The notes under the pieces were generated by a model that saw only the letters and a program-made list of their open reading frames with translations, had not been told where the DNA came from and made no database searches. Source: Bryobacterales bacterium (GTDB taxonomy: Bacteria; Acidobacteriota; Terriglobia; Bryobacterales; Bryobacteraceae). From it: DNA of 64,000 nucleotides. This document shows positions 3,391 to 36,110 of the stretch, one piece after another; within the stretch, counting starts at the first letter, position 1, and the number at the start of each line of letters is the position of its first letter. The position numbers and the translations under genes are program-made. The stretch is taken from positions 354,292-418,291 of the forward strand of contig CAVRLR010000001.1 of assembly GCA_963722155.1 (NCBI GenBank). Reading direction: 5' to 3'.

Positions 3391-6300
3391 AAATCGTAAA
3401 GGCTTGGGCGGCGCCGGTCACGCTGCCGACCTACGAGCCACATGCGCCCGACAAGAATCCGATGTTCCTGGAGACGCGGGTCTACCAGGGCAGCAGCGGG
3501 AAGGTGTATCCCGTGCCCTTCACGGATCGCATCGCGACGCAACCGCGCGAGCGGCAGTGGCAGGCCGTGCACATTGAGAACGAGTTCCTGCAAGTGATGG
3601 TTCTGCCTGAAATCGGCGGACGCATCCACGCGGGTCTTGATAAGACCAACGGGTACGACTTTTTCTATCGTCAGCACGTCATCAAGCCGGCGCTGGTGGG
3701 GCTTGCCGGGCCGTGGATCTCGGGAGGCGTGGAGTTTAACTGGCCGCAGCACCACCGGCCGGCGACGTTTCTGCCGGTGGATTACAAGATCGAGGAACAT
3801 GCCGATGGCTCCCGAACAATTTGGTTGAGTGATCACGATCCGATGAACCGTCTGCGCGGCATGCATGGCGTCTGTCTGCATCCGGGCCGCGCTTATTTGG
3901 AAGTCAAGGTTAGGCTTTACAACCGCACGCCGTTTCACGCAGACATTTCTCTGGTGGGCGAACGCCGGCGTGCACGTGAACGACGAGTATCAGTCGTTTT
4001 TTCCGCCCGACGTGGAATTCGTGGCCGATCACGCCAGGCGCGCGATGAGCACATACCCGCTTTGTGAGGGCCGCTACTACGGCGTCGATTACGGAAGCCG
4101 TGGCTATCCGGCAAACGACCTGAGCCGGTATGTGAACATTCCCGTGCCAACCAGCTACATGGCGATCGGCTCAGCGGAAGATTTTCTCGGCGGCTACGAT
4201 CATCGAAAGCGCGCGGGAGTGGTGCACGTGGCGAATCACCACATTGCGCCCGGCAAGAAGCAATGGACATGGGGCAATGCAGAATTCGGACATACCTGGG
4301 AACGAAACCTGACGGACCATGATGGGCCGTATATCGAACTGATGGCAGGCGTCTATACCGACAATCAGCCGGACTTTTCCTTTCTCACGCCGTGGGAGAC
4401 GCGAACCTTTGAACAGTATTGGTATCCAATCCAGGAAATTGGACCGGCGCAGCAGGCGAATCGAGACGCGGCAATCAGCCTGCGGCAGCGAGGACGGGAC
4501 GATTCGAGTAGGCGTGTGCGTCACGCAGCGATTTCCGGCAGCTACGGTGACCCTCGAAAGAGACGGTAAATCGGCCGCCACGTGGACGCGAGATTTAGCC
4601 CCCGGGAATGTGCTCGTCGAAAATGTCGTTTCATCTGGAGAAGGTGTGCTCCGGTTGTTCGTAAAGACTGCCGAAGGCCGCGAATTGATCGCCTATCAGC
4701 CGCGGTCGACGGCAGACGGAGATCCACCCAAGCCAGCAACGGAACCACCGCCTCCCGAAACAATCGCGACGAACGACGAACTATATTTCACCGGGCTGCA
4801 TCTCGAACAATACCGGCACGCTACGCGCTCGCCCGAGCCCTACTGGAAGGAAGCGCTCGATCGCGATCCGGAGGATGTGCGTTCAAACAATGCTTTAGGC
4901 CTGTGGCATCTTCGTCGAGGCGAGTTTTCGCGTGCAGAACGGCATTTGCGGCGGGCGATCGCCTCTCTGACCCGTCGGAATGACAATCCCTACGATTGCG
5001 AGGCTTACTACAATCTCGGACTTACGCTTCGCTATTTGGACCGGCGGGCAGAGGCCTATGCCGCATTCTACAAAGCGACCTGGAACTACGCCTGGCGCGC
5101 GGCGAGTTTCCACGCTTTGGCGGAACTTGACGCCGAGCGTGGTCATTGGGAGCACGCGCTCGAACACGTTGAACGATGCTTGCGTACGAATGCGGACGAT
5201 CTGAATGCCCGCAATCTCGCGGTTCGGCTCCTGCGGGAACTGGGGCGACGTGCAGAAGCAGACGAAAATTTGACCGCAATATTGAAGCTCGATCCGCTCG
5301 ATCCATGGGCTGGCCATCTGGCAAACAACGCATTCACGGCCGACGATCAGACGCGGCTGGATGTGGCCTTCGATTATGCGCGCGCCGGATTTTACGAAGA
5401 TGCCACGCGGCTGCTTGAAATGGCCGAGGCGCCGATGTTGATGTACTTGCGCGCCTTTTGCGAAGCAAAGCTCGGGCGCAGCCCGCAGAAGTCACTCGCC
5501 GCGGCAGCCGAGGCTTCGCCCGACTACTGTTTTCCGAGCCGGCTCGAGGAGATGCTGGTGCTGCAGTTTGCAATCGAGGCGAATCCGCCCGACGCCCGCG
5601 CGCGCTACTACCTTGGCAATCTGCTGTACGACCGGCGTCGGCATCGCGAGGCCATTGCGCTTTGGGAGCAGTCCGCTGTGCTCGATCCCGCGTTTTCCGT
5701 GATGTGGCGCAATTTAGGAATCGGCTATTTCAATATCCTCAGGGACGCGGCCAGGGCGCAGGAGGCATTTCAGAACGCCCGCGCGGCAGATCCGGCGGAC
5801 GCGCGTCTTCTCTACGAACAAGATCAACTCGCCAAGCGGACCGGAGCACTCCCCAAAGAGAGGCTCGAGCGCTTGGAACAACATTCCCCACTTGTTGGCC
5901 AACGGGACGATTTGAGCGTCGAGATGGCGGCACTCTATAACCAAACGGGGCAACCCGGGAAAGCTCTGGAGTTATTGCAGTCGCGGCAATTTCAGCCCTG
6001 GGAAGGGGGCGAGGGATTAACAATTGCGCAGTACGTACGCGCACACTTGAACCTGGGGCGCCGCGCGGTCGCAAAAGGCGACGCCTTGGAAGCTACAAGG
6101 CAGTTCGAGGCCGCGCTGGAGAATCCAGCACAAGTCGGGGAAGCGAAACATCCGCTGGCAGATCAAAGCAACATTTACTATTGGCTGGGGATGGCGTGGC
6201 AGGCGAACCGTGAAGAAGCGAGAGCGCGCGCTTGGTGGCACGAAGCTGCGGCCGCCGAAGAGATTTCGGACATGACGTATTACAGTGCACTGGCAATGCG

Positions 6301-6625
6301 GCAACTGGGCGAAGAAGATGCGTGCACGGAATTACTGAGGAAGCTGCTGGCTCACGCGCGTGACCTATCGCGAAAACCGGCTCGGATCGACTATTTCGCC
6401 ACCTCACTGCCAACTATGTTGTTGTTCCACGAAGATCTGGATGCTCGCAAAGACATTACGGCGGTTTTCCTGGAAGCGCAGAGTCGGTTTGGCCTCGGCG
6501 ACAGAAAGCGCGCGCGTTCGTTGCTCAATAGAGTTTTGAAACTCGATCCGAATCACGCGATGGCGATGGAGCTGCGCGAGGAACTGTTGATGGCGCAGCC
6601 GGCTTCGGTCGAAGCGCGAGTCTGA
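3387..6625 (+). pseudogene. DUF5107-like N-terminal domain plus TPR protein, split over three frames by two frameshifts
   Basis: Track ORFs 3387-4067, 3865-4569 and 4409-6625 join into one protein. The first junction is ...RLYNRTPF / TQTFLWWANAGV, with the frame change near 3936. The second is ...NRDAAISL / EDGTIRVGVCVTQ, with the change near 4480-4490. The last 700 aa are TPR-like repeats. Confidence 0.7.
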
Positions 6626-6628
6626 CGG

Positions 6629-8011
6629 ATGAATACGTTCAATGCCCGTTACGCCTGGACCATCTCTCTGGCGGCGGCACTCGGCGGATTGCTGTTTGGC
6701 TACGACTGGGTGGTGATAGGCGGTGCCAAGCCGTTTTACGAGACATATTTTCGGCTGACGACGGCACGCTCGATCGGCTGGGCCAATAGCTGCGCATTGC
6801 TCGGCTGCCTTGGCGGCTCACTGATAGCCGGATGGGCGAGCGATCGTTTCGGCCGCAAGAAATTACTGCTGCTATCGGCCGTGCTGTTTGCGGTGTCCTC
6901 CGCGCTTACCGCTTTAGCCGGAAGTTTTGGCGCCTTCATCGGCTGGCGCATTACCGGCGGCGTAGCGATCGGAATCGCGTCGAATGTTTCGCCCACCTAC
7001 ATTGCGGAGGTCAGCCCGGCGCCCTGGAGGGGAAGGCTGGTGGCGCTGAACCAGCTCACGATCGTCGTGGGTATTCTGGCGGCCCAGATTGTCAACTGGC
7101 TGATCGCCGAAAAGGTCCCAATGAACGCCACAGCAGAGATGATCCGCGCATCGTGGAACGGGCAATATGGCTGGCGCTGGATGTTCGCTGCGGTAGTCGC
7201 ACCTTCGATTGTCTTTTTTCTGGCGGCTCTGTTTATTCCCGAAAGTCCGCGCTGGTTGGTAAAGAAAGCCAAATTAGCCGGGGCCAGGGCAACCCTGGCA
7301 AGAATCGGTGGCACGAAATATGCCGACGACGCCGTGGCCGAGATTCGGACCACACTCTCGGATGATGGCGGTACACAATGGGCGGATTTATTGCGTCCGG
7401 GTGTCGTGCGCGCGCTTGGCGTCGGCATCGCTCTCGCTGTGCTGCAGCAATGGAGCGGTATCAATGTCATTTTCAACTACGCGGAGGAAATTTATCGCGC
7501 GGCGGGTTATGGAGTGAGCGACGTTCTGTTCAATATTGTGATCACCGGAGCGATCAATCTGGTGTTCACGCTGGTGGCCCTGCAATTCGTCGATCGGCTG
7601 GGCCGGCGTCCGTTAATGCTGATCGGCTGTGCCGGAATCGGAATAGCTCACTTTCTGATTGGCCTGGCGTATCGTGAGGGGCTACACGGCCTGCCCGTAT
7701 TGATCTTGACGCTACTCGCCATCTCCGGCTATGCAATGTCGCTCGCGCCCGTGACGTGGGTGTTGATCTCGGAAATCTTTCCGAACAGAGTACGGGGCCG
7801 TGCGATTTCGATCTCGGTGTCCGCGTTATGGATCGCCTCCTTCGCGCTGACCTACTCGTTTCCCTCCATAGGCAAAACCCTTGGGTCTGACGGGACATTT
7901 TGGCTTTATGCTGGAATATGTCTCATAGGGTTCGGCTTCGTGTTCTGGCGGGTGCCCGAGACCAGGGGAAAGACTCTAGAGCAAATTGAACGTGAATTGA
8001 CGGCTGCTTGA
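6629..8011 (+). CDS. MFS sugar porter (sugar:H+ symporter family)
   Basis: 460 aa with 12 predicted TM segments. Sugar-porter signatures are present: DRFGRKKLLL, PESPRWL and PETRGKTLEQIE. Confidence 0.9.
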   Translation: MNTFNARYAWTISLAAALGGLLFGYDWVVIGGAKPFYETYFRLTTARSIGWANSCALLGCLGGSLIAGWASDRFGRKKLLLLSAVLFAVSSALTALAGSFGAFIGWRITGGVAIGIASNVSPTYIAEVSPAPWRGRLVALNQLTIVVGILAAQIVNWLIAEKVPMNATAEMIRASWNGQYGWRWMFAAVVAPSIVFFLAALFIPESPRWLVKKAKLAGARATLARIGGTKYADDAVAEIRTTLSDDGGTQWADLLRPGVVRALGVGIALAVLQQWSGINVIFNYAEEIYRAAGYGVSDVLFNIVITGAINLVFTLVALQFVDRLGRRPLMLIGCAGIGIAHFLIGLAYREGLHGLPVLILTLLAISGYAMSLAPVTWVLISEIFPNRVRGRAISISVSALWIASFALTYSFPSIGKTLGSDGTFWLYAGICLIGFGFVFWRVPETRGKTLEQIERELTAA

Positions 8012-8041
8012 ACGGCGGCCGGCAAGTGAGCGTCATAAGGA

Positions 8042-9223
8042 ATGACCACGATGCCTCGTCGCTTTCGGGGAGAGCCGAGTACGGCACGTGAGGTGGCGCA
8101 CGCCATTTCGCGGAGCCGCCGGGAGTTTCTGCGTGAAGCCACCGGCGCCGTGGCCGTGGGAACTCTGCTCTGCCCCTATCCGCTGAGCGCTCTGGCGCTG
8201 CCACGCGCCCGGAAAGCGATAGTCGTTACGTTCGGCGGCGGCGCCCGCGACGACGAAACGTTCGCGCCCGACGGACAGGACAACATTCCGCACATGCTCA
8301 CCGAGCTTGCGCCGCGCTCGACGTTTTTCACCCAGGTGATCAATCGCGGCATCCTAGGCCATTACGTGGCAACGGCAAGCCTGGCGACGGGAGTCTACGA
8401 GACGTTCAACAATTTCGCAAAGGTGTCGCCGGATCATCCAACCGTTTTCGAGTACTTCCGTAAGGATCTGAAGCGTCCGTCGACGGACGCCTGGGTGATC
8501 GCGCCGAGCAATGGGTTCAACCGGATTGGTGAAAGCGGATATCGCGGATACGGTCCGGGTTTCGGCGCGGGAGTGATCCTTCCGAAGCGGCTGCTGGCGG
8601 CTGCGCTCGCGGGCGGCGGTGAAGCGGATTTCAATCACCTGCTGCGCGACAATTACGAATCGTCGTCGTTCAGCCCGGTCGTGGGCGGCAACGATGTCGA
8701 ACTGAAGACACTCAGCGATATTTTTCAGCTGTCAGTTGCCGATTTTGTGGCACATGCCAAGAGCCTGGCGAGTCCGGATGAGCTTTCGGTGTACATTGCA
8801 CGCCAGCTCATGCATCGGCTTGCTCCCAGTCTCTTGTGGATCACACTACACGATATCGACGTGGCGCACTCGGGCGCGTTTTCGCTCTACCTAGACGGAA
8901 TTCGACGCTCCGACCGCTTGTGCGCGGAACTCTGGCGGACGATCCAATCCGAACCCGAGTATGCGGGCAAGACAACCATGTTCATATTGCCGGACTTCGG
9001 CCGCGACTCGGATACAAGCGCGGGCGGCAACGGCTTCCAGCATCATCGGACAGGCGATCCTACGTCGCGCACAACCTGGATGATGGCGCTGGGCGCAGGC
9101 GTGCGTGAAAACACGATCGTGGACCGGCCGATTGAATCGACTGATTTGGTGCCCACGCTCGGATCGCTCCTGGGCTTTTCGCCAAGCCTGGCTCAAGGAA
9201 AGCCGCTGCCGGAGGTGCTGTAG
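8042..9223 (+). CDS. twin-arginine-signal protein, DUF1501-like (sulfatase / alkaline-phosphatase superfamily-like)
   Basis: Tat-type N-terminus SRREFLREATGAVAVG. Family-like segments are KAIVVTFGGGARDDETF and ILPDFGRDSD...GGNGFQHHRTGD...ALGAGV, which resemble DUF1501 motifs. Confidence 0.5.
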   Translation: MTTMPRRFRGEPSTAREVAHAISRSRREFLREATGAVAVGTLLCPYPLSALALPRARKAIVVTFGGGARDDETFAPDGQDNIPHMLTELAPRSTFFTQVINRGILGHYVATASLATGVYETFNNFAKVSPDHPTVFEYFRKDLKRPSTDAWVIAPSNGFNRIGESGYRGYGPGFGAGVILPKRLLAAALAGGGEADFNHLLRDNYESSSFSPVVGGNDVELKTLSDIFQLSVADFVAHAKSLASPDELSVYIARQLMHRLAPSLLWITLHDIDVAHSGAFSLYLDGIRRSDRLCAELWRTIQSEPEYAGKTTMFILPDFGRDSDTSAGGNGFQHHRTGDPTSRTTWMMALGAGVRENTIVDRPIESTDLVPTLGSLLGFSPSLAQGKPLPEVL

Positions 9224-9228
9224 ACGCT

Positions 9229-10434
9229 ATGCTCCCGTCGCAGCTCAGCGCCGAACAGTTTCGTAGCTACCCGCTGAAAGCACGGCAGGTAGCCGTCGCG
9301 AACGTCACCCTGCTGCAGCGATTGCCGTTGAGCTTTGTTCCCTTTCTACTGAAGGAGATCGTTCTTTACGACTGGAAATTCCCAGCCGAACAATGGGAAC
9401 TGGATAAGCAGCTTTCCTATCTCGCTGACTTGTCGGACGAGCGCCGCCAGGCTGAGATGGCACGCTTCGCCAGGCTTGGCCTCACCTCTCAACTTGAGGC
9501 TTTCGATTGGTTAAATTCGCCGGCACAGTTTTTGGAGCTGCTTTCGGCGCATCTCTGGGCTACTCATCAGACGGATGAATTTCGTGAAGCTTCCGAGCAA
9601 TATGTCCACAAGTTCTACGCCACGCTCACGTGGCCGAAGCTTCCGGTGCCGCGGCTCGGAATCGTAACGGTGGGTCGCGGCGTGACGGACAACCGGTATT
9701 CGCTATTTCGCAAACTGCGGCGTAACGGAGTCTACTTCACCAATGTGAATCCTGCCAATGGCCTGGAGACACTGCTGGAAACAGTAAAACTGAGGGCAGC
9801 AAATTATCCGCAGGCGTACGGCCACTGGTCCATCCAGGGCGGAGCCAGTATGGCGGTGCCCGGGATGACAAGCGTTTCCTACGACGAGATGACACCAATA
9901 CGAAGGGCGCTCACGGAAAAGATGCGTGCCGCGTATGAATCCTCGACGTTCAACCCGGAGGTTTTGCGGACCGTGCTGGCGCGGATCGAACCTGAATCGC
10001 TGGGGATGACCGGCTCCGGACGCGATGGGACACTCGATCGGTTTCAGCTCAGCCTGCTGACAGAGGGTTCGGGAACCCAGATCTACAGCACGACTTTTGT
10101 GCAATGGGCGGCGCGCGAGGCGCTACGGCGTGCGCGGCCGTTGACATTGTTTACGCGCTACGCGCCGCGCCAAAAAGAGCGGCCAATGAACGAGTTGCTC
10201 ACAGGAGCTGGGCGAACAGTTGCAACCGACCCCGAAGGTTCGCTGATCGATGGGGACATGGGGGCCTACTATACCTGGCTGAATCAGCAACGGCTTCCGG
10301 GAGCGGAGGAGTCTCGATTTCTGGTTTGGTTCGAAGGTCAGGGGGAGGCCGTAGCCATCGGCCCACATCTCAAGCCCGGCACTGCCGACGCGGCCGCGAT
10401 CGATATGGCGGAGTTGTTGAAAGCGATCGCTTAG
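9229..10434 (+). CDS. hypothetical protein (401 aa), no recognisable domain
   Basis: Long ORF starting 5 nt after the DUF1501-like gene, with coding-like composition. I recognise no motif. Confidence 0.55.
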   Translation: MLPSQLSAEQFRSYPLKARQVAVANVTLLQRLPLSFVPFLLKEIVLYDWKFPAEQWELDKQLSYLADLSDERRQAEMARFARLGLTSQLEAFDWLNSPAQFLELLSAHLWATHQTDEFREASEQYVHKFYATLTWPKLPVPRLGIVTVGRGVTDNRYSLFRKLRRNGVYFTNVNPANGLETLLETVKLRAANYPQAYGHWSIQGGASMAVPGMTSVSYDEMTPIRRALTEKMRAAYESSTFNPEVLRTVLARIEPESLGMTGSGRDGTLDRFQLSLLTEGSGTQIYSTTFVQWAAREALRRARPLTLFTRYAPRQKERPMNELLTGAGRTVATDPEGSLIDGDMGAYYTWLNQQRLPGAEESRFLVWFEGQGEAVAIGPHLKPGTADAAAIDMAELLKAIA

Positions 10435-11287: not shown

Positions 11288-13768
11288 CTACAGTGTCCGG
11301 CTGTAAAGCTGAAACGGAGCCCAGTAGTAGGGCTTGCGGTATTGCGTCTTGAGCAGTTTCAACTTGGCGCTGCGGAGGGCGGCCGGATACGATTCGCCAG
11401 AGTCGACGGCGGCGTAGAAGTAGCCCATAAAGACGGCCGTCGAACGATCGTTGACGTCCCATAGACTGGTCACAACATTGCGGGCGCCAGCCTCGAAGAA
11501 CGCCCACGCGAATCCGACGAGTCCTTCACCCGAAAGCGTGCGGGTGCCAGCGCCGCGACAGGCGGAGATCGTGACAAGATCGGCGTCCAGAGGGATCTCC
11601 GCCACGTCGCGCGCATAGAGCCTGTATCTATTCCCGCTTGGCGAGAGAATGATGGCCGAGTCGAGCGGACTTTGCTCGTTGGCGTCGGCATGGGTAACGA
11701 AATGGATCGTGGAAAAACGCCGGGGTTGTGCAGAACGATATGCTTGGGGCACAGCGGCAGCTTGTGTGAACACTGCAGTGTGCGCGGACGGGAAATAGCG
11801 GCGTACTTGTTGGATTTCGCTCGCAGCATTCGGAAGCGGTTCGAACCCGGTGCCGGTCATTATGGGATCGCCCATGAGCAGGAGTGAACGGCTGCGAGCA
11901 CTCGAAGCACGCCCTATCTGCAGGCTGCCTAGCGACGGAGCCACCGACAAAGTTACATCTTCGATCCAATAATGAGGAACGGGGCCTGGGAGCAGGAGCG
12001 TTTCGAGGTTCAAACTGTGCAGAGATCCGTCGGGAATGAACACGATCTGGCTGCCCTTGGCAATATAAGGCGCCGCAGGACTGACTAACATGTCGTAGAG
12101 CCTCCGCCCCACAGCGTTAGCGTCGGCGGCCGGATCACGTTTCTCCAGCTCGATCAGCGAACGGTAGGACTCGACCTCGCTATCTAATCGCGTTTTGCCT
12201 GGAAGGGGAACCAGGTTGAACGAATTGGGAGAAAGAATCCATAGATAGGAACGCTCCGGCGCGAGCCAATAAAAGAGGACCGTAGCGTGAGCCTCTTTGA
12301 GATCGCGTGCAATCTCGCTTAGGCTGGTCCGGCCTGTAAGGTTCTCGGTCAGCACACGGGCGCGGCTTGAGTCGGCGACCTCGAGTGCGCGCCATGGCTC
12401 ATTCCGCTTAACAAGGAGTTCGACATAAGCCTGATAGAACCGGATCAGGTGCGCGAGAAATGTAATTTTGTATTCACTGCGGACCTGGTTCGAACGATTG
12501 GCCTCAATCAACTGCAGCGCGCGCTCATAGCTGTTTGCCGCACCGTTGAAGTCGCCCTCGCCGGCATAGATCGCCGCCAGTCCGCCATAAGCCTGCCATT
12601 CGACATCGGGAACATTTTTGCCAGCGCCCAGAGCTTCCAAATAGGCTAGTCTCGCTTCCTGATAATGTCCCCGGCGGTCGGCGATCAGGGCTCGGTTGAG
12701 GTAGGCATAGGCAATCTGTTCCTTGTCGTCTTTACTGCAGGCATCGAAAGCCTGCTGGTTGTAGCGCTCGGCTTCGTCAAGAGAGCCGGCCTCTTCGAGC
12801 GCCTGGGCAATAGAGGCGGCGGCAATAGAAAACTGGGCAGGAGAATCGCGTCGGTTGACTAGAGCAAGCGCCTGGTGGAAATAGCCGAGCGCTTTGGCGT
12901 TCTCCCCTTGCACCAAATGAATATTGCCGAGTTCAAGGTAGCTGTCTTTCAAAGATGTAGCTAGCCCCGCATCCTTTTGTAAGCTGACGGCTTGTAACCG
13001 CGCTTTGAGGGCCCGTGGAAGATCGCCGAGATTGTAAAAGCAGGTCGCGATATTGCCTATGGCGTAAGAATTCAGGACGGCAGCTCCGATCTTGGTTGCG
13101 ATACGGCTCGAATCCTGGAAATACGGGATGGCATCGCCATAGTGAGCGCGAACGACAAACGTCATTCCCAGATTCAGAAGCGCAGCGCTTCTCTGATAGG
13201 CGAGGTGGTTGGCGGTTGCGATCTCGAGAGCGGCGCGGGATGCCGCCTCAGCCTTTACCCGATCTTTCAGGAATGCGCCAAGCAGTAATTCCGTATCCGC
13301 TTCCACCTCGAAATCGGCAAGGGAATGCGCTTCGCTGGCCGCGCGCCGTAGCAGTCGCTCGCCACCGGCGTAATCCTGATGCCGAAACATCACGTAGCCT
13401 TGAAGCTTTTCGTATGCAGGCAGTAAATGCGGAAAGTTTGGCGGAGGAGGAGTGGCGAGTAGTGGCCCAGCCCGTTGCGTTTCCCCGTTGTACAGAAGCA
13501 TCTCCGCAAGAAGCAATTTGAATTTCCAATGCCATTCGGAGCGGGGTTGATGTTCGAAAGCCTTATAGCCGGCGGATGCAAATCCGCGCGCGCTGGAGAA
13601 CTGGCCTTTCACCGATGCCGCGCGCGTCGATTCGAAAAGTGTTTCGGGCGGGCGCGCGCAGCTTGTGAGCAGAAGGAGACAACTAAAGATCTGAAAACTG
13701 TGGCGGCCACGTACTGCCGTTGCCCTGCGCTTCGCACGCCGACATGTCTCCGCCATAGCTGGAACCAA
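11288..13768 (-). CDS. TPR-repeat CHAT-domain protease with a lipoprotein-like signal
   Basis: 826 aa. The N-terminus is basic, followed by FQIFSCLLLLTSC. About 550 aa of TPR-like repeats come next. The C-terminal CHAT domain keeps the dyad contexts IHFVTHAD and LVTISACRGAG, and ends YYWAPFQLY. Confidence 0.9.
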   Translation of the reverse strand: MVPAMAETCRRAKRRATAVRGRHSFQIFSCLLLLTSCARPPETLFESTRAASVKGQFSSARGFASAGYKAFEHQPRSEWHWKFKLLLAEMLLYNGETQRAGPLLATPPPPNFPHLLPAYEKLQGYVMFRHQDYAGGERLLRRAASEAHSLADFEVEADTELLLGAFLKDRVKAEAASRAALEIATANHLAYQRSAALLNLGMTFVVRAHYGDAIPYFQDSSRIATKIGAAVLNSYAIGNIATCFYNLGDLPRALKARLQAVSLQKDAGLATSLKDSYLELGNIHLVQGENAKALGYFHQALALVNRRDSPAQFSIAAASIAQALEEAGSLDEAERYNQQAFDACSKDDKEQIAYAYLNRALIADRRGHYQEARLAYLEALGAGKNVPDVEWQAYGGLAAIYAGEGDFNGAANSYERALQLIEANRSNQVRSEYKITFLAHLIRFYQAYVELLVKRNEPWRALEVADSSRARVLTENLTGRTSLSEIARDLKEAHATVLFYWLAPERSYLWILSPNSFNLVPLPGKTRLDSEVESYRSLIELEKRDPAADANAVGRRLYDMLVSPAAPYIAKGSQIVFIPDGSLHSLNLETLLLPGPVPHYWIEDVTLSVAPSLGSLQIGRASSARSRSLLLMGDPIMTGTGFEPLPNAASEIQQVRRYFPSAHTAVFTQAAAVPQAYRSAQPRRFSTIHFVTHADANEQSPLDSAIILSPSGNRYRLYARDVAEIPLDADLVTISACRGAGTRTLSGEGLVGFAWAFFEAGARNVVTSLWDVNDRSTAVFMGYFYAAVDSGESYPAALRSAKLKLLKTQYRKPYYWAPFQLYSRTL

Positions 13769-14567
13769 GTTGAAAGCGTATCAGGGTTACCCGCCTGTAG
13801 TTCTCTTCGATGAAAATCTCGCCGAAATACAGTGTTCCAAGCCCTTCGATCTTCATCCGGTTCGTGCCGATAAAGTCGGTTTTATCTGGCTTTTTGCCTT
13901 GCCACTCGAGGCCTGTGACCACGGTCCCGTAAATCATTCCCTTCGAATTGGGAATCTCATTGCGGCCCGTTGGCCCGCCAGTTGGGAAAAACAAGTTCCC
14001 ATAACGCTTGCGAAAATCGCCGTCCTTTTCATAGCGCTGGACCAGCTTGGCTTTGGTTTCGTGCTGCGAAAAGACGTCTGCAACTGTATTCACTTTGAGC
14101 GGCACACCGTCCACCGAGACCTCAGTGAAAGTCGTCTCAAGTGAACGGAAGGCAATGGGATTCCGGCGATCGGAAGCGCTCTCAAGACGAACATGCAACT
14201 GCTTGACGGCGAAAACGCGGCGCCCCTTGCCCGTGTCGAGCGGCACATCAATCTTGAGGCCGTCCACGGAAGATTCGACGAACGTATGAGTGGAAAGTCC
14301 GTTTTGTCCGTGATTGCCGTTTGTAAATCCGGCCGCGCTGTGGATATCGGCGAAGTCGCCTAGCGTGCGGCTGGATGCCGACTCAAAGGAAATAATTTCG
14401 TGGAAATTTTGGCCGCTCGCCTGTACTTCCGCCAGACCACCGGTTACTGGCAGAGCTGTGGGCGCAACAGCACGGATGAACAGATCGTTGGGCCGCCGGA
14501 TGTGGGCGGCCAGCGCCACGGCGGCGCCATTAAAAATGAATCGCTTCTCTACGAGCGGATTATCCAT
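13683..14567 (-). CDS. hypothetical 294-aa protein sitting between the anti-sigma and CHAT genes
   Basis: Uninterrupted ORF. Its ATG overlaps the anti-sigma stop (ATGGATAA) and its last 86 nt overlap the CHAT ORF out of frame. It has no TM segment, no signal peptide and no motif I can name. Confidence 0.7.
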   Translation of the reverse strand: MDNPLVEKRFIFNGAAVALAAHIRRPNDLFIRAVAPTALPVTGGLAEVQASGQNFHEIISFESASSRTLGDFADIHSAAGFTNGNHGQNGLSTHTFVESSVDGLKIDVPLDTGKGRRVFAVKQLHVRLESASDRRNPIAFRSLETTFTEVSVDGVPLKVNTVADVFSQHETKAKLVQRYEKDGDFRKRYGNLFFPTGGPTGRNEIPNSKGMIYGTVVTGLEWQGKKPDKTDFIGTNRMKIEGLGTLYFGEIFIEENYRRVTLIRFQLGSSYGGDMSACEAQGNGSTWPPQFSDL

Positions 14568-15240
14568 GAGGCTCCTTGTCCTGAATCGCGAACGAAAAAC
14601 GGCTCAGTACCGTTTCGGGCTGCGAAGCGGGTCTTAAGATCATCACATAATGGCCCGGAGGAAATTGACTGGTGGGCAGGAGTACTTCTAGGGTAAATGC
14701 CGCGACTTTCCGCGGACCGGAATTCACCTGAACGACCGAGCCTTTGCCTTCAGTCTGAAAATCGCAGACATAGGAGGGATAGGCCTGCGGAGAATCCACA
14801 TCGAAGCTGAGGTTGAACATGGGTGAGCGGCGGTCAATCGCGACGACCGGCCCGCTGTCGCGAGCAGCCGAAGGAATAGGCACCGTTTCAAGAGCCTGCG
14901 GCCTCGTAAGGCCGGGTATGTAGACGAAATTCTGGTAGCCGACGACCAGCGCAAGAGCCAGCGCGGCGATTGAGGGAACGAGCGTTGCGGGCCTGAGCCA
15001 GCTTAGCCAGTTCTTGCGAGCTTGGGTGGCCGTGGACACACACTGCTCCGCAGTCTCCCTCTGCTCGTCGAGCAGCACTTGTTTGAGATTGTCAATCGCG
15101 ATCACATCCTGCCTGAGTTGGTCGGCACACGTTTGGCATTCAAAGTAATGGGCTTCGAATTCCAGTCTCTCCGTCTCGCTCATTTCATTTAGCAGGTATT
15201 TATCGACCGCTTGGGTCTGTTCTGCCAATTGGTGGTTCAT
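14560..15240 (-). CDS. anti-sigma factor (zf-HC2-like N-terminus, one TM helix, extracytoplasmic domain)
   Basis: EAHYFECQTCADQL zinc-type motif, TM segment LVPSIAALALALVVGY, and about 110 aa C-terminal to it. The gene lies 42 nt downstream of the ECF sigma gene. Confidence 0.75.
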   Translation of the reverse strand: MNHQLAEQTQAVDKYLLNEMSETERLEFEAHYFECQTCADQLRQDVIAIDNLKQVLLDEQRETAEQCVSTATQARKNWLSWLRPATLVPSIAALALALVVGYQNFVYIPGLTRPQALETVPIPSAARDSGPVVAIDRRSPMFNLSFDVDSPQAYPSYVCDFQTEGKGSVVQVNSGPRKVAAFTLEVLLPTSQFPPGHYVMILRPASQPETVLSRFSFAIQDKEPHG

Positions 15241-15282
15241 AGCGTCTGTCCATTAGTGAGAGAGCCCCACCGGACGTTTCAC

Positions 15283-15948
15283 TCAGCTTACTGCCGTCGC
15301 CATGGATTTAATGCCTGTATCTTTTTCGAGGGCGCTTCGAAACCGGGCCAGAGCGCGGTGTACGCGAACGCGCAAATAGTCGCGGTCGATACCTAACTCA
15401 TGGCAGATCTCATCTTTGTCACGGTCCTCGAGAAATACCTTTCGCAGAACGGCTCGATCGGTCTCGGAGAGCTTATCTAACACGTGCCGAATGAGCCTCT
15501 TGCGCTCCGCCGTGATGCATTCCGAATCGGCGCTGGCCGATTCATCTTCCGGTTCGGGCGCATTTTCCGGGGGTTGCTGGTAGCGGCTTCCCGCGCGAAA
15601 GAATTCCGACAGCACGTTATCGCAGACCGCATTCACGAACGCACCCAGGCGTTCCGGGTGCTCAAGACCGCCCTTGTTGCGCAGTACGTTCAGTACGCGG
15701 AGGAACGTTTCCTGGCGAGCATCGTCGACCAGATGGGAGGAGCGCAAACGACAGCGCAATTTAATGGAAAGCAGTTCACCAAAATAGCGGCTGAAATGCC
15801 GTTCCGTCTCGGCGTCCCCGTCGATCAGCCGATTTACGTAGCTTTCGTCGAATGACTGGCGCTCCAAGGTTCCTCTGACGCGATAGACACGATGGTACAA
15901 CGACGGGCTGGCCGAATTACTCGAGAAATCCTGCGTAACAGCGGACAT
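15283..15948 (-). CDS. ECF-type RNA polymerase sigma-70 family factor
   Basis: Region 2 (DDARQETFLRVL...FVNAVCDNVLSEFFR) and region 4 (LSETDRAVLRKVFLEDRDKDEICHELGIDRDYLRVRVHRALARFR). Confidence 0.9.
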   Translation of the reverse strand: MSAVTQDFSSNSASPSLYHRVYRVRGTLERQSFDESYVNRLIDGDAETERHFSRYFGELLSIKLRCRLRSSHLVDDARQETFLRVLNVLRNKGGLEHPERLGAFVNAVCDNVLSEFFRAGSRYQQPPENAPEPEDESASADSECITAERKRLIRHVLDKLSETDRAVLRKVFLEDRDKDEICHELGIDRDYLRVRVHRALARFRSALEKDTGIKSMATAVS

Positions 15949-16075
15949 GAGGCTTGATGCCGCTTGGTGAAGGCTGGCGCACCAGCGTTTCAGCCCGGCG
16001 TTGTAATTTTTTTCGACATTTCCGCCGGAATTTCTGGTCGATCAGACATTTAGCCGGACAATATGTGAGTAATAA

Positions 16076-25652: not shown

Positions 25653-25728
25653 GGGCGGCTAGCTCAGCTGGGAGAGCACCACGTTCGCAACGTGGGGGTC
25701 GTGGGTTCGAACCCCATGCCGTCCACCA
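25653..25728 (+). tRNA. tRNA-Ala (anticodon CGC)
   Basis: 76-nt cloverleaf folded by hand: acceptor GGGCGGC / GCCGTCC with the G3:U70 alanine identity pair, anticodon loop TTCGCAA, T-loop TTCGAAC, and an encoded CCA. Confidence 0.9.
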
Positions 25729-26776
25729 AAATATCCTCTTCAGAATCAGCAGTTACAGCCAATTTTTTCGAGTTTGACAAAAATCTGACATCCCACACAT
25801 CCTGCGCCAGGCTCAAAATCCGTTCCTGACGCTGAACAGTCCATTGCGCGTAGTGTTTCCGGATGATCTCTGGAGTGCTGCCGAGGACGTTTGCAACGTC
25901 CTCCGTCGTCCAGCCCTTTTCCAGCAGCGCGGTTGCTAAAGTGTGACGGAAGCGGTGCGCATGAGCGGCTTCCACTTCGGATAGCTGAAAGACGCGCGCC
26001 AAAGTTCGCGTGACACCACGAATGAAAGCTCGGGTGGTGCCATTTCCACTCCAAAAGAGATACTTCGATTGTCCCTTTGTCCCTTTCGGTTCGGGCAATG
26101 CATCTAGGACGTCACGAAGTACCGGAGGTATGGGCAAAAAGATCGGCTTCCCGTTCTTCATTGTGTGGAGGTAAATGCGGCTGTTTCGCACGCGGTCGCG
26201 GGCGAGCGTTGCCACATCGCTAATCCGGAGTCCGGTGTAACGGAGCAAAAGCACCATGGCCCGAGATCTACTGCGCTCATACGGTCCTCTACCCAGTTGG
26301 TCACAGGCGGAGAGAATTCGCACGACTTCTTCCTGTGTGTAGGGCTCCTTCGGTTTTGTCTTCACGGTTGGAGGTTTTACTTCCTTCGCCGGATTGGAGG
26401 ACATCCACTTCCGGCTGACGCAAAAGCCAAAGAAGTTCCGTAGAATGGCCAGCTCCTTGATCCACGTCATTGCCGAAATCGGCCGTTTCGTGCGAAACAG
26501 ATCGACGGTCTCGATTTCTACATCATCAAGTCTGGTGATACTCGTAGCTTTGGCGATTCGAAGAAAGTTATCGAGCGCTCTACGGTGATTCCGTTTAGTG
26601 CCGTGGCCAACGTCTTCCTTCGAAGATTTGAATGCCTCAATGGCATCTTGGATCGATTTTGGTTCCCGATAGTCTGGCCGTTCCATGGCGGCAAGCTTTC
26701 GGTACGCTTTGTCGAGACTTCGGGTATAGAGCGACGTACGATAGCGTTTCCCTTTCAATGTCCCATCGACTCCCAA
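25664..26776 (-). CDS. tyrosine recombinase / phage-type integrase
   Basis: Catalytic contexts LLRYTGLRISD, HRFRHTLATALL and IIRKHY. The last 22 codons run antisense through tRNA-Ala. The track start is TTG, and the frame stays open a further 47 codons upstream (to 26917) encoding NCPHRKKGRQFLNCKC with no ATG or GTG. Confidence 0.85.
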   Translation of the reverse strand: MGVDGTLKGKRYRTSLYTRSLDKAYRKLAAMERPDYREPKSIQDAIEAFKSSKEDVGHGTKRNHRRALDNFLRIAKATSITRLDDVEIETVDLFRTKRPISAMTWIKELAILRNFFGFCVSRKWMSSNPAKEVKPPTVKTKPKEPYTQEEVVRILSACDQLGRGPYERSRSRAMVLLLRYTGLRISDVATLARDRVRNSRIYLHTMKNGKPIFLPIPPVLRDVLDALPEPKGTKGQSKYLFWSGNGTTRAFIRGVTRTLARVFQLSEVEAAHAHRFRHTLATALLEKGWTTEDVANVLGSTPEIIRKHYAQWTVQRQERILSLAQDVWDVRFLSNSKKLAVTADSEEDILVDGMGFEPTTPTLRTWCSPS

Positions 26777-26865
26777 ACTGCACTTGCAGTTGAGGAATTG
26801 CCGTCCCTTTTTGCGATGGGGGCAGTTGCGGGAAGTGGAGCCGAACCAGATAGAGATCGGGCAAG

Positions 26866-27171
26866 CTAACCTCGATCCCTGTTGCCCGACGCAACGATTC
26901 TTCGTTGGTATTCGCGTTCAGCAACTGAGGCTGGAATTCTCAACGTGAAGTATTCGCGCTTTCCGCTTCGCCGTTTATCGTTGCCGAGGCGCAGGACGCC
27001 GGGAGCGACTTCGAAGATACGGCGGATGGTCGATTCATCCAACCTCCAAAGCTCTGCGAGTACCTGCACCGAGTAGTGGGGTTCCAGCGAGGAGGCCGGG
27101 AGATTGGAGACTGTTTCGGATTCGGGGCGGTTCCCCGATTCTTGCCAGGTTTCGAGATATGAGTTCTTCAA
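26866..27171 (-). CDS. excisionase-like HTH DNA-binding protein
   Basis: 101 aa, immediately upstream of the integrase. YSVQVLAELWRLDESTIRRIF ... LRIPASVAEREY matches the HTH_17 / AlpA-type pattern. Confidence 0.5.
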   Translation of the reverse strand: MKNSYLETWQESGNRPESETVSNLPASSLEPHYSVQVLAELWRLDESTIRRIFEVAPGVLRLGNDKRRSGKREYFTLRIPASVAEREYQRRIVASGNRDRG

Positions 27172-27465
27172 GGTTCTCCTCGAATTCCAGGTGATTTACG
27201 TCCGTGAGGCCGCCGCTAGCCACAGACTCGCGTATTGGAAGGTCAGAGCCAGCCGGACGCTCTTCTCTCCGTTCCGAGTGCGTTCTGCGGCGGAGCTACC
27301 GTTGATTTTCGCTTGCTGCATTGTGTTTCCGCTTCCTTCTGAGAATTTGTGCTCTCACTAATAAGCGGGGTGAATTTAGCCAAAATGTTGAAGCCGTACA
27401 AATATTATTTTTCGTCTCCTTGATGTAGGATAAAAATTTAAGGCTGCGGTTATCGGAAAAATAGA

Positions 27466-27984
27466 GTGCCATTCGAACCGCTCAAGTCAAAATTAGTTGA
27501 CCGCATGGGCCGTCAGGTTGCCGAACCGGTTCAGGCAACAGTCGTGCGCGCGTTCGAACGGGCGATAACGATTCCTGACGCAAATATCGACCATCTTGTT
27601 TTGGGAGCCGCCCGCGTCGCGAGAGTCATCGCAGATGGTGGCGCCGCAAAGCCAGACGAATACGCGTTTACTGTTCTACGGCGAATCGCTTGGCAAAGTC
27701 AGCGGGACCTTCTTGAGCCTTCGCAGACCGCTTCCTTATCTGAACAAGAAGCCGAGTCGCTGGAGGATAAGGGTGTTTGCTCGTCGGCAATCCTGGCGGG
27801 AATCGAGATCCGGCAGCTCCTGGATAACCTTGACGATCGCGACGAGAAGATCGTCACCATGCGCAGTCGCGGATTCCGATACGAAGAAATCTCCGCGGAA
27901 GTAGGGATGCTGGAAGTTTCAGTACGATGCCGATATCATTTGGCAAAGAATCGGCTGCGAACGCTTGCTGGTGGCGAGCGATAA
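27466..27984 (+). CDS. divergent ECF-like sigma factor (region-4 HTH clear, region 2 weak)
   Basis: 172 aa, GTG start. LDDRDEKIVTMRSRGFRYEEISAEVGMLEVSVRCRYHLAKNRLR is a sigma region-4-type HTH. Confidence 0.45.
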   Translation: MPFEPLKSKLVDRMGRQVAEPVQATVVRAFERAITIPDANIDHLVLGAARVARVIADGGAAKPDEYAFTVLRRIAWQSQRDLLEPSQTASLSEQEAESLEDKGVCSSAILAGIEIRQLLDNLDDRDEKIVTMRSRGFRYEEISAEVGMLEVSVRCRYHLAKNRLRTLAGGER

Positions 27985-28669
27985 TGTTGCGACGGTGGCA
28001 AATGATCCGATTGACAAGCTAAGGCGAACCGCTTACCCGAACCCGGAGCGGATCGGCTGCCCAAATTCTTCGATCTTTGAGGCACTGAGACTTCGGAAGA
28101 TCGCTTTTGACGATCCCGTTTGGACGCACATCGAACACTGCTCGCCTTGCTATTGTCAGTTTTCCGAAATTCGAGAGGCGCTCTTTAAAGAAGAGCGAAA
28201 GAACGATTCCCGAAGAGCAATACGGGCCGGTTTGGTCATTGTCGTGCTTATCGCGCTTGGGGCAAGTTTCTACGTTTGGCGGCGAAGTAGAACCAACGAA
28301 GGTCAAGCGAGGATCGCCTCAAATCACGGTGAGGCGGTCGTTTTAAATTTCGAAGATGGATCTGAGCTTCGCGGGGTTCAAGGTGATTCAACTGCACGTA
28401 TCAATTCAGGTGTACAACACCTACCCCGCAACCAGCTCAACCTCACCGTATATTTGCCGCTCGGCAGTCCCGCCGGCAGTTATGATCTGGAAATCGTTGG
28501 TTCGACCGGTGACAGGATTTGGCATGCTCAGGGCCAAGCCTTTATCAAAAATGGTCTAACGTCAATTCCAGTCGAAGGCGACCTGCGCAATGTGCCGATC
28601 GGGGCTTACAAATTCCGATTCCGAAGGCCTGATGAAACTTGGCGCGAAAAAGATGTGATTGTGCGGTAG
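27965..28669 (+). CDS. anti-sigma-like membrane protein (Cys/His cluster, one TM helix, extracytoplasmic domain)
   Basis: Overlaps the sigma-like gene by 20 nt. It has CPNSS...HIEHCSPCYC and the TM helix GLVIVVLIALGASFYVW. Its outside domain shares LxVxLPxxxxPxGxYxxxI with the anti-sigma at 14560-15240. Confidence 0.45.
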   Translation: MLVASDNVATVANDPIDKLRRTAYPNPERIGCPNSSIFEALRLRKIAFDDPVWTHIEHCSPCYCQFSEIREALFKEERKNDSRRAIRAGLVIVVLIALGASFYVWRRSRTNEGQARIASNHGEAVVLNFEDGSELRGVQGDSTARINSGVQHLPRNQLNLTVYLPLGSPAGSYDLEIVGSTGDRIWHAQGQAFIKNGLTSIPVEGDLRNVPIGAYKFRFRRPDETWREKDVIVR

Positions 28670-28811
28670 ATGTCTCCGAACTACGACGTCGGAGTCTTGC
28701 CGATGTAGGTCAAATCCTTTTCTTCCAGAGATTCGTGGAGCAGCACGTCAGCGTTTCGGCGGATTAGTCCCGATAAATACTGTAGCGTCTTGTTCTTTTG
28801 TTCTGACTCTT

Positions 28812-30056
28812 TTAGCTGAAATGTGTTGCGACCTGGATCGCCGTTTCCAATTCCGGATCTCTACCTTGTTCAGCGGCATCCGGGAAAAAGCCGACGGGAA
28901 TATCTGGCTGTATTCCAATTCCCTCAATGTGCATGCCGTTCCAGGTCTGCCAGGTGGTGACGGGAATGCGGAGGCGATATCCCTCGCCGACGGTAAAGTT
29001 CGCACCACCCATCACTTCACCTGCAGTGGTCGTTCCAACGAGCGTTGCGAGATGGTTCTCCTGTGCAAATGCTGCCACCATTTCGGCTGCTGAATGCGTG
29101 TGTTCGTTGATCAGCATTACTATGCGACCGTGGAACGGACGCGGCCCGAGACCTTCGGTCTCCAGCATGACTGACCGATCTCTATGGATGAATCTGAACC
29201 GCACGAACATTGCGAGTTGCCTAAGCTTTGATTCGGGCAGTTGGCCGATTCTAGGCAGGTTTTCCGGTTTTGTGCGCTTCTGAATATGACATTTGGTCAG
29301 ACTGTAGCCGATCGGTCGGCGGTCTGCGCAGAGATAGCTCATTAAGCGCAGGGATGCCAGGCCGCCGCCAATATTACCCCGTAAATCGATAATCAGGCGG
29401 TCGCGGTCCTCGCCAGTAAGCCGACCGATGATACTGTCCAGTTCCTTTGCGAACGGCAGTCCAACCGCCCCAGGAAATGTGCTGACTTTGATCAGTGGCA
29501 CTTGCCCGTTTTCAATTCTGAAAGACAGTGCTTTGGGCTCGATCATCGGGGGGCGATCCTTTGCTGGCTTGTTGGGTACGGTCACCGTGACAGTTCTCGT
29601 CTCCGGGTCGCCTAGGTTGCCAATCGTCAGAGAGTATTCACCGCCAAAACCGAATAGGGGGCGGTCAGAGCAAGAAATGTCTGCGCCGTCTTTTGAGATG
29701 AGCACGTCGCCCGGTCTAATTCCTGCCAGCTCGGCTGGTCCGTCTTCAATCACATCCTGAAAGACCCATCGCTCACCATCCGCAGTCGCGTGCCTCCTTG
29801 TCGTTGCGCAAAGAGCATGGCGCAGTGGAATGGTTTCCGCGTCCGGCTTTAAGAAAGCCGTATGGCTAGTCTGAAGACTTGCCAAAGATGAGTGGATCGC
29901 TGCCTGAAAATCAACCGGCGATGCGGCAAGCAGCTCGGGCGCTATACGATCGAACTTCGAAAGCCATTCTGCATAGGAATCTGGTTCGACGTTCACGTGT
30001 TTCGTAGCGATAAGGGTCTTGATTGTGTTGAGGGTTTTTTGTCTGTCGGCAATCAT
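28812..30056 (-). CDS. S41 family peptidase with a PDZ-like domain
   Basis: GIRPGDVLISKDG (PDZ-like), LIIDLRGNIGGG and MLINEHTHSAAEMVAAF (S41 Ser context). The start lies 6 nt after the stop of the CHAT fragment. Confidence 0.85.
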   Translation of the reverse strand: MIADRQKTLNTIKTLIATKHVNVEPDSYAEWLSKFDRIAPELLAASPVDFQAAIHSSLASLQTSHTAFLKPDAETIPLRHALCATTRRHATADGERWVFQDVIEDGPAELAGIRPGDVLISKDGADISCSDRPLFGFGGEYSLTIGNLGDPETRTVTVTVPNKPAKDRPPMIEPKALSFRIENGQVPLIKVSTFPGAVGLPFAKELDSIIGRLTGEDRDRLIIDLRGNIGGGLASLRLMSYLCADRRPIGYSLTKCHIQKRTKPENLPRIGQLPESKLRQLAMFVRFRFIHRDRSVMLETEGLGPRPFHGRIVMLINEHTHSAAEMVAAFAQENHLATLVGTTTAGEVMGGANFTVGEGYRLRIPVTTWQTWNGMHIEGIGIQPDIPVGFFPDAAEQGRDPELETAIQVATHFS

Positions 30057-30062
30057 GATTGT

Positions 30063-34067: not shown

Positions 34068-34213
34068 TTCGATATTGATCAGCGGGGTTGCCGGTAGCTT
34101 CTCCGCTGATCAGAGCAGAATGGCCGCTTATTCTTTCACGGCTGTTCTGTTCGCGGTATAGAGGGTCTGCAAGTTCCCAGGCCCTCTAGCCTAAGCCCTT
34201 AAAGAATCAATCC

Positions 34214-36062: not shown

Positions 36063-36110
36063 CCTGGAGCGCGGCCCAGCAGCTTATACCTGTATTGATT
36101 AGAAGATATG

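Follow-up and report, generated by a model that had tools for sequence, protein, structure and literature searches.

The question raised by this locus is whether an exported, caspase-like protease could act as the trigger of a sigma factor of the extracytoplasmic function (ECF) type that is encoded in the same operon. The locus lies within a 64-kb stretch of the genome of a Bryobacterales bacterium (hereafter the window, by which we mean the whole of the DNA that was analyzed), and it comprises four open reading frames (ORFs), all on the minus strand and covering 4.7 kb in total. Their boundaries, as taken from the ORF list and the sequence, are as follows:

15283-15948, minus strand: ECF sigma factor, 221 amino acids (aa)
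14560-15240, minus strand: anti-sigma factor, 226 aa
13683-14567, minus strand: DUF8256 protein, 294 aa
11288-13768, minus strand: TPR-CHAT protein, 826 aa from the TTG at 13768, or 822 aa from the ATG at 13756

An earlier note, made from the DNA letters alone, had described these four ORFs as a candidate protease-gated sigma switch, and its account of the layout proved exact in every coordinate. A gap of 42 nucleotides (nt) separates the sigma and anti-sigma genes, the anti-sigma stop and the DUF8256 start overlap by 8 nt (ATGGATAA), and the DUF8256 ORF shares 74 nt (counting from ATG 13756) or 86 nt (from TTG 13768) with the TPR-CHAT ORF, in another reading frame. The labels that it gave to the sigma factor, the anti-sigma factor and the TPR-CHAT protein are likewise borne out, by matches to TIGR02937, to zf-HC2, and to PF12770 together with TPR families, respectively. 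The four genes are predicted to constitute one functional unit, a self-contained autoregulated ECF sigma cassette, because their synteny is conserved at 23-88% identity of the DUF8256 protein, the second to fourth genes are coupled, and the operon has a shared promoter motif at two positions. With somewhat less than even confidence, we read this cassette as a split counterpart of the DdvA module of Myxococcus, in which a periplasmic CHAT lipoprotein would be both the sensor and the site-1 protease for the anti-sigma factor.

Conservation of the four-gene cassette

An alignment of DUF8256 proteins was scanned against one genome per species from the GTDB, and the 40 loci thus recovered were then searched by tblastn with the four window proteins. 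Acidobacteriota contributed 39 of these loci, which span the Bryobacterales, Acidobacteriaceae, Vicinamibacterales, Thermoanaerobaculia and Solibacteraceae, and the remaining one came from a betaproteobacterial metagenome-assembled genome (MAG). Thirty-five of the 40 loci are not cut by a contig end, and in 31 of these complete loci all four genes are present, with an unchanged order (sigma, anti-sigma, DUF8256, CHAT) and on one strand; the DUF8256 proteins of the four-gene loci range from 88% down to 23% identity. This synteny is well beyond chance, and the search for co-occurring homologues sustains the position of the earlier note that the genes are not adjacent by accident. Across orders, the family looks to have been conserved by vertical descent. 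The second to fourth genes are closely spaced in most loci, by -8 to about +20 nt (that is, by overlaps or short gaps), and are predicted to be translationally coupled. Of the 35 loci long enough to reach past the DUF8256 gene, 34 have a full-length CHAT gene downstream of it, and the remaining one has a truncated CHAT ORF in this place. No further gene is common to all the cassettes: those flanking the window cassette encode short-chain dehydrogenases, and the tyrosinase-like and secreted-protein neighbors seen in related loci are lineage-specific. Within the window operon, sigma-70 promoters and terminators were encountered at chance level only. None of the 40 loci has a form in which a ZAS domain, a transmembrane segment and a TPR-CHAT region are fused in one polypeptide.

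Several loci depart from the common arrangement. In one (L035), the sigma factor is undetectable and the other three genes are kept along with the promoter motif. Three loci from related Acidobacteriota MAGs (L027, L030 and L033, each at about 5300-10340) encode DUF8256 and the CHAT lipoprotein with no sigma/anti-sigma pair; here the two genes are preceded by genes for a GT-C-like membrane protein and for DUF1552-family proteins, and no sigma-type motif is present upstream of them. The GT-C-like membrane protein was considered as a cassette partner in L030 and looks unrelated. Additional metagenomic contigs with distant DUF8256 members carry the same cassette. One such contig (L044:246-5575) encodes a sigma factor, a zf-HC2 anti-sigma factor and a short DUF8256 protein (229 aa), followed by a 964-aa protein that takes the place of CHAT. 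This protein has a metalloprotease-like HEFCH (HExxH) motif and a Cys-rich C-terminus; it found no match in Pfam, NCBIfam or the PDB, and no signal peptide is visible from its sole possible start. The exchange suggests that the feature retained by the cassette is a protease partner of some kind.

The sigma factor and its promoter motif

The product of the first gene matches TIGR02937 with 55.4 bits (cutoff 42.9) over residues 49-207, and exceeds the cutoffs of both Sigma70_r4_2 and the region 4 model, with region 2 being weak at 13.8 bits. Its best relatives among solved structures are ECF sigma factors. By these profile matches it is a member of the ECF (group 4) branch of the sigma-70 family, and its ECF group may already have been catalogued with this gene context.

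The regions upstream of the sigma genes have in common a motif of the form TG(T/A)AACG-N16-CAC, which is found ahead of the sigma gene in about 25 related loci. In the window it occurs at the following two sites:

15967-15992, minus strand: P1, TGAAACG-N16-CAC, 18 nt upstream of the sigma ATG
15256-15281, minus strand: P2, a second copy of the motif, in the gap between the sigma and anti-sigma genes, 15 nt upstream of the anti-sigma ATG

These are the only two strict matches in the 64 kb, as against 0.25 expected, and over 540 kb made up of the loci and the window region there are 46 strict matches, compared with 1.7 in shuffled sequences. The motif depends sharply on its spacer, a length of 16 nt giving 46 matches, one of 17 nt giving 9, and other lengths giving 0-3. 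A motif in the P2 position was detected in 12 other loci, at or overlapping the sigma stop, and its TGA is often the sigma stop codon itself. When one mismatch was permitted, the window gave 11 matches against 6.8 expected, which is at chance level and reveals no further regulon members. The sigma factor is thereby predicted to autoregulate, with the anti-sigma, DUF8256 and CHAT genes being served by a sigma-type promoter of their own, the predicted P2.

Outside the window, the motif also precedes other genes. In two Vicinamibacterales-like loci (L029:4181-5464 and L036:4276-5554) it lies divergent from the sigma gene and faces a tyrosinase-family gene, and in two others (L024:5866-6687 and L032:10366-11815) it lies 3' of CHAT, before a gene for a secreted protein of about 250 aa that had no Pfam hit. 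The tyrosinase-like genes and those for the secreted protein are candidate lineage-specific members of the regulon.

The anti-sigma factor

The product of the second gene scores 23.2 bits against zf-HC2 (cutoff 22.2). In an alignment of 36 orthologues, four residues are invariant, namely H3 and those of the array H31-x3-C35-x2-C38; these are candidate zinc ligands, with H3 as the candidate fourth. The protein is predicted to be a single-pass, class I ZAS-type anti-sigma factor that holds the sigma factor. Two of its features are central to what follows:

14917-14985, minus strand: transmembrane segment, residues about 86-108; the sole strongly hydrophobic 19-mer starts at residue 82 (Kyte-Doolittle 1.89)
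14860-14862, minus strand: conserved Arg127, from the alignment of the 36 orthologues

The periplasmic part comprises about 118 residues, with a beta domain at about residues 119-221. A single-sequence AlphaFold model of low confidence (predicted local distance difference test, pLDDT, 54.7) has helices, the transmembrane helix, an unstructured linker and about 8 beta strands. The best-conserved periplasmic feature of the orthologues is a motif of the form (A/S/T)-R-(G/D), situated about 20 residues past the membrane, where position 127 is Arg in 35 of the 36 and Lys in the remaining one. The loop around this residue is a candidate cleavage site.

The TPR-CHAT protein is a predicted periplasmic lipoprotein

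The CHAT domain (PF12770) is matched with an E-value of 1.4e-56 over residues 552-822 (11303-12115), and the TPR region, at about residues 139-432, is made up of matches to TPR_12, TPR_1, TPR_2 and TPR_MalT. Three positions stand out:

11690-11692, minus strand: catalytic His693 (IHFVTHAD), invariant in 36 of 36 orthologues
11558-11560, minus strand: catalytic Cys737 (ISACRGAG), invariant in 36 of 36 orthologues
13658-13660, minus strand: lipobox Cys37, in the signal peptide

The catalytic dyad that the earlier note had seen in the window protein is therefore kept in all of the orthologues aligned. The same is largely true of the lipoprotein-like N-terminus from which that note had placed the protein outside the cytoplasm: the window protein begins with MAETCRRAKRRATAVRGRHSFQIFSCLLLLTSC, and most orthologues likewise have a basic n-region, after which come a hydrophobic stretch and, at residue 33-45, a lipobox Cys. 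In the clade where the CHAT start overlaps DUF8256, the signal is present in all 16 members, and it is also found in most of the distant loci, where the two genes do not run into each other, as in MKRAVAAAAVLLALAAC and MTRIAVALALVFATAC. Exceptions are two of the most distant loci, where its place is taken by a plain signal peptide in one and by a membrane anchor in the other. Given that the lipoprotein signal is kept and that His693 and Cys737 are invariant, the protein is predicted to be an exported, periplasmic lipoprotein and is probably an active protease. The earlier note had named missing synteny, and a cytoplasmic or catalytically dead CHAT protein, as grounds for dropping its idea; at the level of sequence, what we find is the reverse of each.

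In the public gene call on one metagenome contig (L046:1730, equivalent to about position 13612 of the window), the CHAT gene starts at a GTG located 71 nt past the DUF8256 stop, near residue 53. This choice of start avoids the overlap, and the signal peptide is lost as a result. CHAT entries annotated in this way may look cytoplasmic in databases, which would hide their periplasmic location.

Searches with the full-length protein against PDB sequences were swamped by TPR proteins, and only a profile of the CHAT domain was informative there (see below). PADLOC returned weak matches only, to a generic TPR model and to BovA.

DUF8256, the obligate partner

For the 294-aa product of the third gene, the earlier note had reported no transmembrane segment, no signal peptide and no recognizable motif. 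The first two statements hold (maximum Kyte-Doolittle value 1.12); as to the third, the family can be named, since all 76 relatives from a homology search, together with the identical protein P0001, are precomputed as members of Pfam PF26784, DUF8256. The protein itself found no match in PADLOC or in local copies of Pfam and NCBIfam, of which the Pfam copy was without a PF26784 model. When 1.84 billion representative proteins were searched with a profile, 1344 representatives were recovered at E <= 1e-3, 817 of them at E <= 1e-10. The best 150 of the 1344 are stand-alone proteins, mostly of about 250-330 aa, in which the match mostly begins at residue 2-10. Homology searches aimed at distant members gave few matches, and a literature search for DUF8256, PF26784 and choice-of-anchor P found no paper. 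By its distribution among the loci, DUF8256 is an obligate partner in the cassette.

An AlphaFold model built from a 33-sequence alignment is of high confidence (pLDDT 92.3, predicted template-modeling score 0.90) and consists mostly of long beta strands (12-17 residues each), with a central set of three short helices. The C-terminus has a conserved WPP, and the residues after it are disordered in the model. The fold and profile searches that the earlier note had proposed for this protein came back empty-handed: Foldseek found no real relative of the model in the PDB or BFVD (best template-modeling score, TM-score, 0.24 in the PDB), the sole PDB match with E < 1e-3 was FadL at a TM-score of 0.12, and the DUF8256 profile gave nothing usable against PDB sequences. 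Gly, Thr, Arg, Asp, Asn and Pro account for the invariant and near-invariant residues, and no obvious set of catalytic residues emerges from the alignment.

An N-terminal RRF-x-F sequence was considered as a twin-arginine or Sec export signal and rejected. Distant members vary in its second Arg (ERF, PRF, DRF), the model places residues 9-23 in a core strand (pLDDT about 95), the positions are conserved one by one, and the rare N-terminal extensions of relatives are Lys-rich or hydrophilic. The family is, on this evidence, without a recognizable export signal. Distant DUF8256 members do match the NCBIfam family NF040603 ('choice-of-anchor P') over their N-terminal approximately 125 residues: P0220 reaches 33.1 bits, above the cutoff of 27, matches came from 5 of 27 distant members (best E 1.5e-9) and, weakly, from 2 of 33 closer ones, and the DUF8256 protein of L044 (L044:1726-2415) is also linked, with the window protein giving no match at E 0.1. 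These matches suggest that the N-terminal half is remotely homologous to that family, short of membership. Judging by its name, NF040603 presumably marks secreted or anchored proteins with alternative C-terminal surface anchors.

A cytoplasmic role for DUF8256 is accordingly the one that we favor, in which it might guard or chaperone the CHAT precursor, or serve as an accessory on the cytoplasmic face of the complex of anti-sigma and sigma factors. The constancy of the DUF8256 and protease genes as a pair, with CHAT present in 34 of 35 loci and, on the separate contig L044, replaced by the HExxH protein, is also what one would expect from a logic like that of type III-E CRISPR (clustered regularly interspaced short palindromic repeats) systems, where CHAT would cleave DUF8256 and DUF8256, like Csx30, would control the sigma factor. 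The conserved disordered WPP tail, of a kind that TPR domains can bind, and the remote link to an extracytoplasmic domain family (NF040603) agree with such a scheme. Nevertheless, we regard it as very improbable, for an exported CHAT protein and a signal-less DUF8256 appear mismatched in compartment, DUF8256 resembles no solved structure and no PADLOC model, and a canonical ZAS anti-sigma factor is already there to hold the sigma factor. The suggestion of the earlier note that CHAT might cut the 294-aa partner is disfavored on this same topological ground.

The layout in which a beta-rich, signal-less protein of about 290 aa is encoded beside a TPR-fused caspase-like protease further resembles that of gasdermin operons, and the long beta hairpins of DUF8256 draw weak Foldseek matches to pore-formers and beta barrels. 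DUF8256 could on this basis be a protease-activated, gasdermin-like effector of a defense or suicide module under ECF control, comparable in this to the island governed by DdvS (see below). This is the least probable of the explanations that we entertain: PADLOC, again, did not recognize the protein, the protease is exported, the flanking short-chain dehydrogenases do not make up a defense island, and the family appears to be inherited vertically. A gasdermin fold was itself rejected, the sole gasdermin chain listed among the Foldseek matches being 8sl0, at rank 46 with a TM-score of 0.08, and all PDB matches being at 0.24 or below.

Finally, DUF8256 could be a signaling or effector protein of new fold that is controlled by proteolysis and is the true common partner of whichever protease is encoded next to it. 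Both the anti-sigma factor and DUF8256 would then be targets, and the cassette would serve as a relay across the envelope. We consider this distinctly unlikely, as it would need either a hidden route of DUF8256 to the membrane or beyond it, or a meeting with the protease precursor in the cytoplasm. Were it true, the system would amount to a caspase-like relay across the envelope.

The CHAT lipoprotein as a possible trigger or product of the sigma factor

If the cassette is indeed a split DdvA-like module, the reading to which we incline, the CHAT lipoprotein would reside in the periplasm, where its TPR array would sense a protein or peptide cue. As the site-1 protease it would then clip the periplasmic part of the anti-sigma factor, with a candidate site in the loop that holds the nearly invariant Arg127, some 20 residues past the membrane. 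A housekeeping intramembrane protease, followed by cytoplasmic proteases, would free the sigma factor, and the freed sigma factor would fire both P1 and P2, thereby amplifying the response and resupplying the anti-sigma factor for reset. A joint action of the anti-sigma factor and CHAT is suggested by a Rosetta-stone argument, because the modules that are fused in DdvA are separate but adjacent here. In the search of PDB sequences with the CHAT-domain profile, the best match was in fact DdvA (8rot_B, 991 residues), with its H862 and C907 aligned to His693 and Cys737.

The promoters can also be read in the opposite direction. P2 lies directly upstream of the anti-sigma, DUF8256 and CHAT genes and is conserved in 13 loci, and the 64 kb contain no further strict motif, which makes the operon the sole predicted local target of the sigma factor. 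This would be expected if the sigma/anti-sigma pair sensed a cue by itself, through the beta domain and a housekeeping site-1 protease, and if DUF8256 and the CHAT lipoprotein were the main products of the regulon, for instance as a protease of the envelope that is made on induction along with a partner in the cytoplasm. The occurrence of DUF8256 and CHAT without an adjacent sigma/anti-sigma pair in L027, L030 and L033 is in line with such a role as output, as is the presence of the motif elsewhere before tyrosinase-like genes and those for the secreted protein of about 250 aa, which implies that the sigma factor drives effector-like genes. There is a precedent in the algU-mucABCD operon, which encodes the protease MucD. 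MucD is an output or a negative regulator, and the output model, the main rival, thus stays live. We nonetheless think it somewhat unlikely. P2 does not discriminate, given that autoregulated operons routinely contain their own regulators, and the model leaves unexplained both the fusion of a ZAS anti-sigma domain with TPR-CHAT in DdvA and the co-occurrence of this family of anti-sigma factors with CHAT in 31 of 35 loci.

Several points weigh against casting the CHAT lipoprotein as the trigger. Its input role is drawn from the analogy with DdvA, in which autoproteolysis has itself only been proposed, and the match to DdvA is weak (E 5e-4) and about tied with that to Csx29 (E 5.7e-4). CHAT lies 3' of the sigma-type promoter P2, so that it could equally be an output. 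The Arg motif of the anti-sigma factor also persists in L044, next to a partner other than a CHAT protein. The DUF8256-CHAT pair is likely to have a function without a neighboring anti-sigma factor, because L027, L030 and L033 carry the pair alone. Moreover, the DUF8256 and CHAT products are apparently on opposite sides of the inner membrane. The sequence data fit CHAT as either the input or the output of the sigma factor, and the two models are not mutually exclusive. Since the presumed sensor, its presumed substrate and the reporter promoters all lie within 4.7 kb, the cassette offers a tractable system in which to test them.

Other features of the window

A probable integrated mobile element occupies 25653-36208, with a G+C fraction of 0.52-0.54 as compared to about 0.57-0.59 elsewhere in the window. 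It is bounded by a tRNA gene (25653-25725, plus strand) and a tRNA-Sec gene (36115-36208, minus strand), has tyrosine integrases at both ends (25664-26776 and 34773-36062), and carries among its cargo a phage capsid-family gene (32952-34067) and an IS240/IS6-type transposase (30589-31305). Its remaining ORFs of relevance are these:

27466-27984, plus strand: sigma-like ORF, with region 4 just under the Pfam cutoff
27965-28669, plus strand: membrane ORF of 234 aa, overlapping the sigma-like ORF, with a zinc-finger-like motif of the H-x-C-x2-C type
28812-30056, convergent with the sigma-like/membrane ORF pair: S41/PDZ peptidase
30063-30425, likewise convergent with that pair and abutting the insertion sequence: truncated C-terminal remnant of a CHAT protein, 37% identical to the operon CHAT over 143 aa

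The earlier note had invoked an anti-sigma/CHAT pairing in this island as support for the cassette. It lends little, as the anti-sigma-like protein of the island bears no similarity to the anti-sigma factor of the cassette in BLASTP (E = 31). No DUF8256 gene is present in the island segment 27466-30530. Elsewhere in the window, at 8042-10434, two adjacent plus-strand ORFs of 393 and 401 aa have no Pfam hit, and the first of them opens with a twin-arginine-like signal, SRREFLREATGAVAVGTLL.

Comparison with known systems

By its components, the closest characterized precedent for the cassette is the DdvA-DdvS system of Myxococcus. In Myxococcus xanthus, DdvA has a ZAS domain, a transmembrane helix and a periplasmic TPR-CHAT region in one polypeptide, with H862 and C907 reported as its catalytic residues (PMC11506125). 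Its authors propose that a signal induces CHAT to clip the juxtamembrane linker, after which RseP cleavage follows and the sigma factor is released; they describe it as the only characterized anti-sigma factor with TPR-CHAT, and fused homologues were encountered by them only in Myxococcota and one Comamonas (PMC11506125). DdvS controls a CBASS (cyclic oligonucleotide-based antiphage signaling system)-CRISPR island (PMC11506125, PMC6061681). The present cassette shares with DdvS-DdvA an ECF sigma factor, an anti-sigma factor with a zinc-binding domain at its N-terminus, a single transmembrane segment, a TPR-CHAT region with the His/Cys dyad that is periplasmic (predicted here), and an autoregulated promoter (likewise predicted here) with an AAC-type -35 element. 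In contrast, the anti-sigma factor (226 aa, with a small beta ectodomain) and the TPR-CHAT lipoprotein are here encoded by two genes that flank DUF8256, CAC stands in place of CGT as the -10 element, no CBASS or CRISPR genes are nearby, and the lineage is Acidobacteriota and not Myxococcota. At most, the cassette works like DdvA, and it is not a member of the fused type.

Craspase, the type III-E system, consists of gRAMP/Cas7-11, the TPR-CHAT protease Csx29, Csx30, Csx31 and the ECF sigma factor RpoE, with Csx29 being cytoplasmic and activated by the RNA-guided gRAMP (PMC10028731). Common to both systems are the genetic linkage of a TPR-CHAT protease to an ECF sigma factor and a proteolysis that is thought to release sigma activity, whereas the protease is here an exported lipoprotein and the sigma factor is held by a membrane-bound ZAS anti-sigma factor. 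The analogy with Csx29 and Csx30 drawn in the earlier note hence survives as the loose logic of a protease-linked ECF switch; DdvA-DdvS is nearer, Csx29 being cytoplasmic and RNA-activated. That note was right to call the locus CRISPR-independent, as the 64-kb window contains no direct-repeat array of the CRISPR type and no cas-like domains among the ORFs scanned.

A genomic association of an ECF sigma factor with a CHAT-domain protein is also seen in ECF54. As cited in PMC8999054, the conserved surroundings of this group include CHAT, subtilase or carboxypeptidase genes, proteolytic control is proposed from this context, and the group is described without an anti-sigma factor. Measured against that description, the sigma factor studied here differs in always being accompanied by a ZAS anti-sigma factor and in having DUF8256 as part of its unit.

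Regulated intramembrane proteolysis of an anti-sigma factor is typified by RseA with DegS and RseP in E. coli, and by MucA with AlgW in Pseudomonas, where MucD is encoded in the operon. The cassette resembles these in its single-pass anti-sigma factor with a periplasmic domain and in the expectation of a periplasmic protease as trigger, with mucD as the precedent for a protease encoded within the operon. It departs from them in the nature of the protease, which is a caspase-like cysteine protease of clan CD with a TPR sensor and a lipid anchor, and not a PDZ serine protease. For DUF8256, the parallel is with staphostatin, a cytoplasmic beta-barrel inhibitor encoded in the same operon as the exported cysteine protease staphopain. 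The likeness is one of logic only, in that DUF8256 lacks a signal, is all-beta, does not look like an enzyme and is translationally coupled to an exported cysteine protease; DUF8256 resembles staphostatin in neither sequence nor fold, has about three times its size, and its gene lies upstream of that for the protease.

Taken singly, the ECF sigma factor, the ZAS anti-sigma factor and the CHAT protease of the cassette are of kinds already known, and the link between CHAT and an anti-sigma factor has one characterized precedent. That precedent, DdvA, reportedly dates from 2024 and is said to be the only characterized link of a CHAT protease with an anti-sigma factor, and to be narrowly distributed. 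We found no prior description of an architecture split in this way, with a lipoprotein as the protease, of DUF8256 as an obligate partner, of the two-promoter layout or of the breadth of the system within Acidobacteriota. The cassette also gives a first functional context to DUF8256, a confidently folded family without structural relatives in the PDB. Should CHAT prove to be the site-1 protease, caspase-like cysteine proteases would join the serine proteases of the DegS and Prc types as triggers of ECF sigma factors. Taken together, these comparisons suggest that the idea embodied in DdvA exists in a split, three-protein form across the Acidobacteriota, a dominant but poorly studied phylum of soil bacteria.

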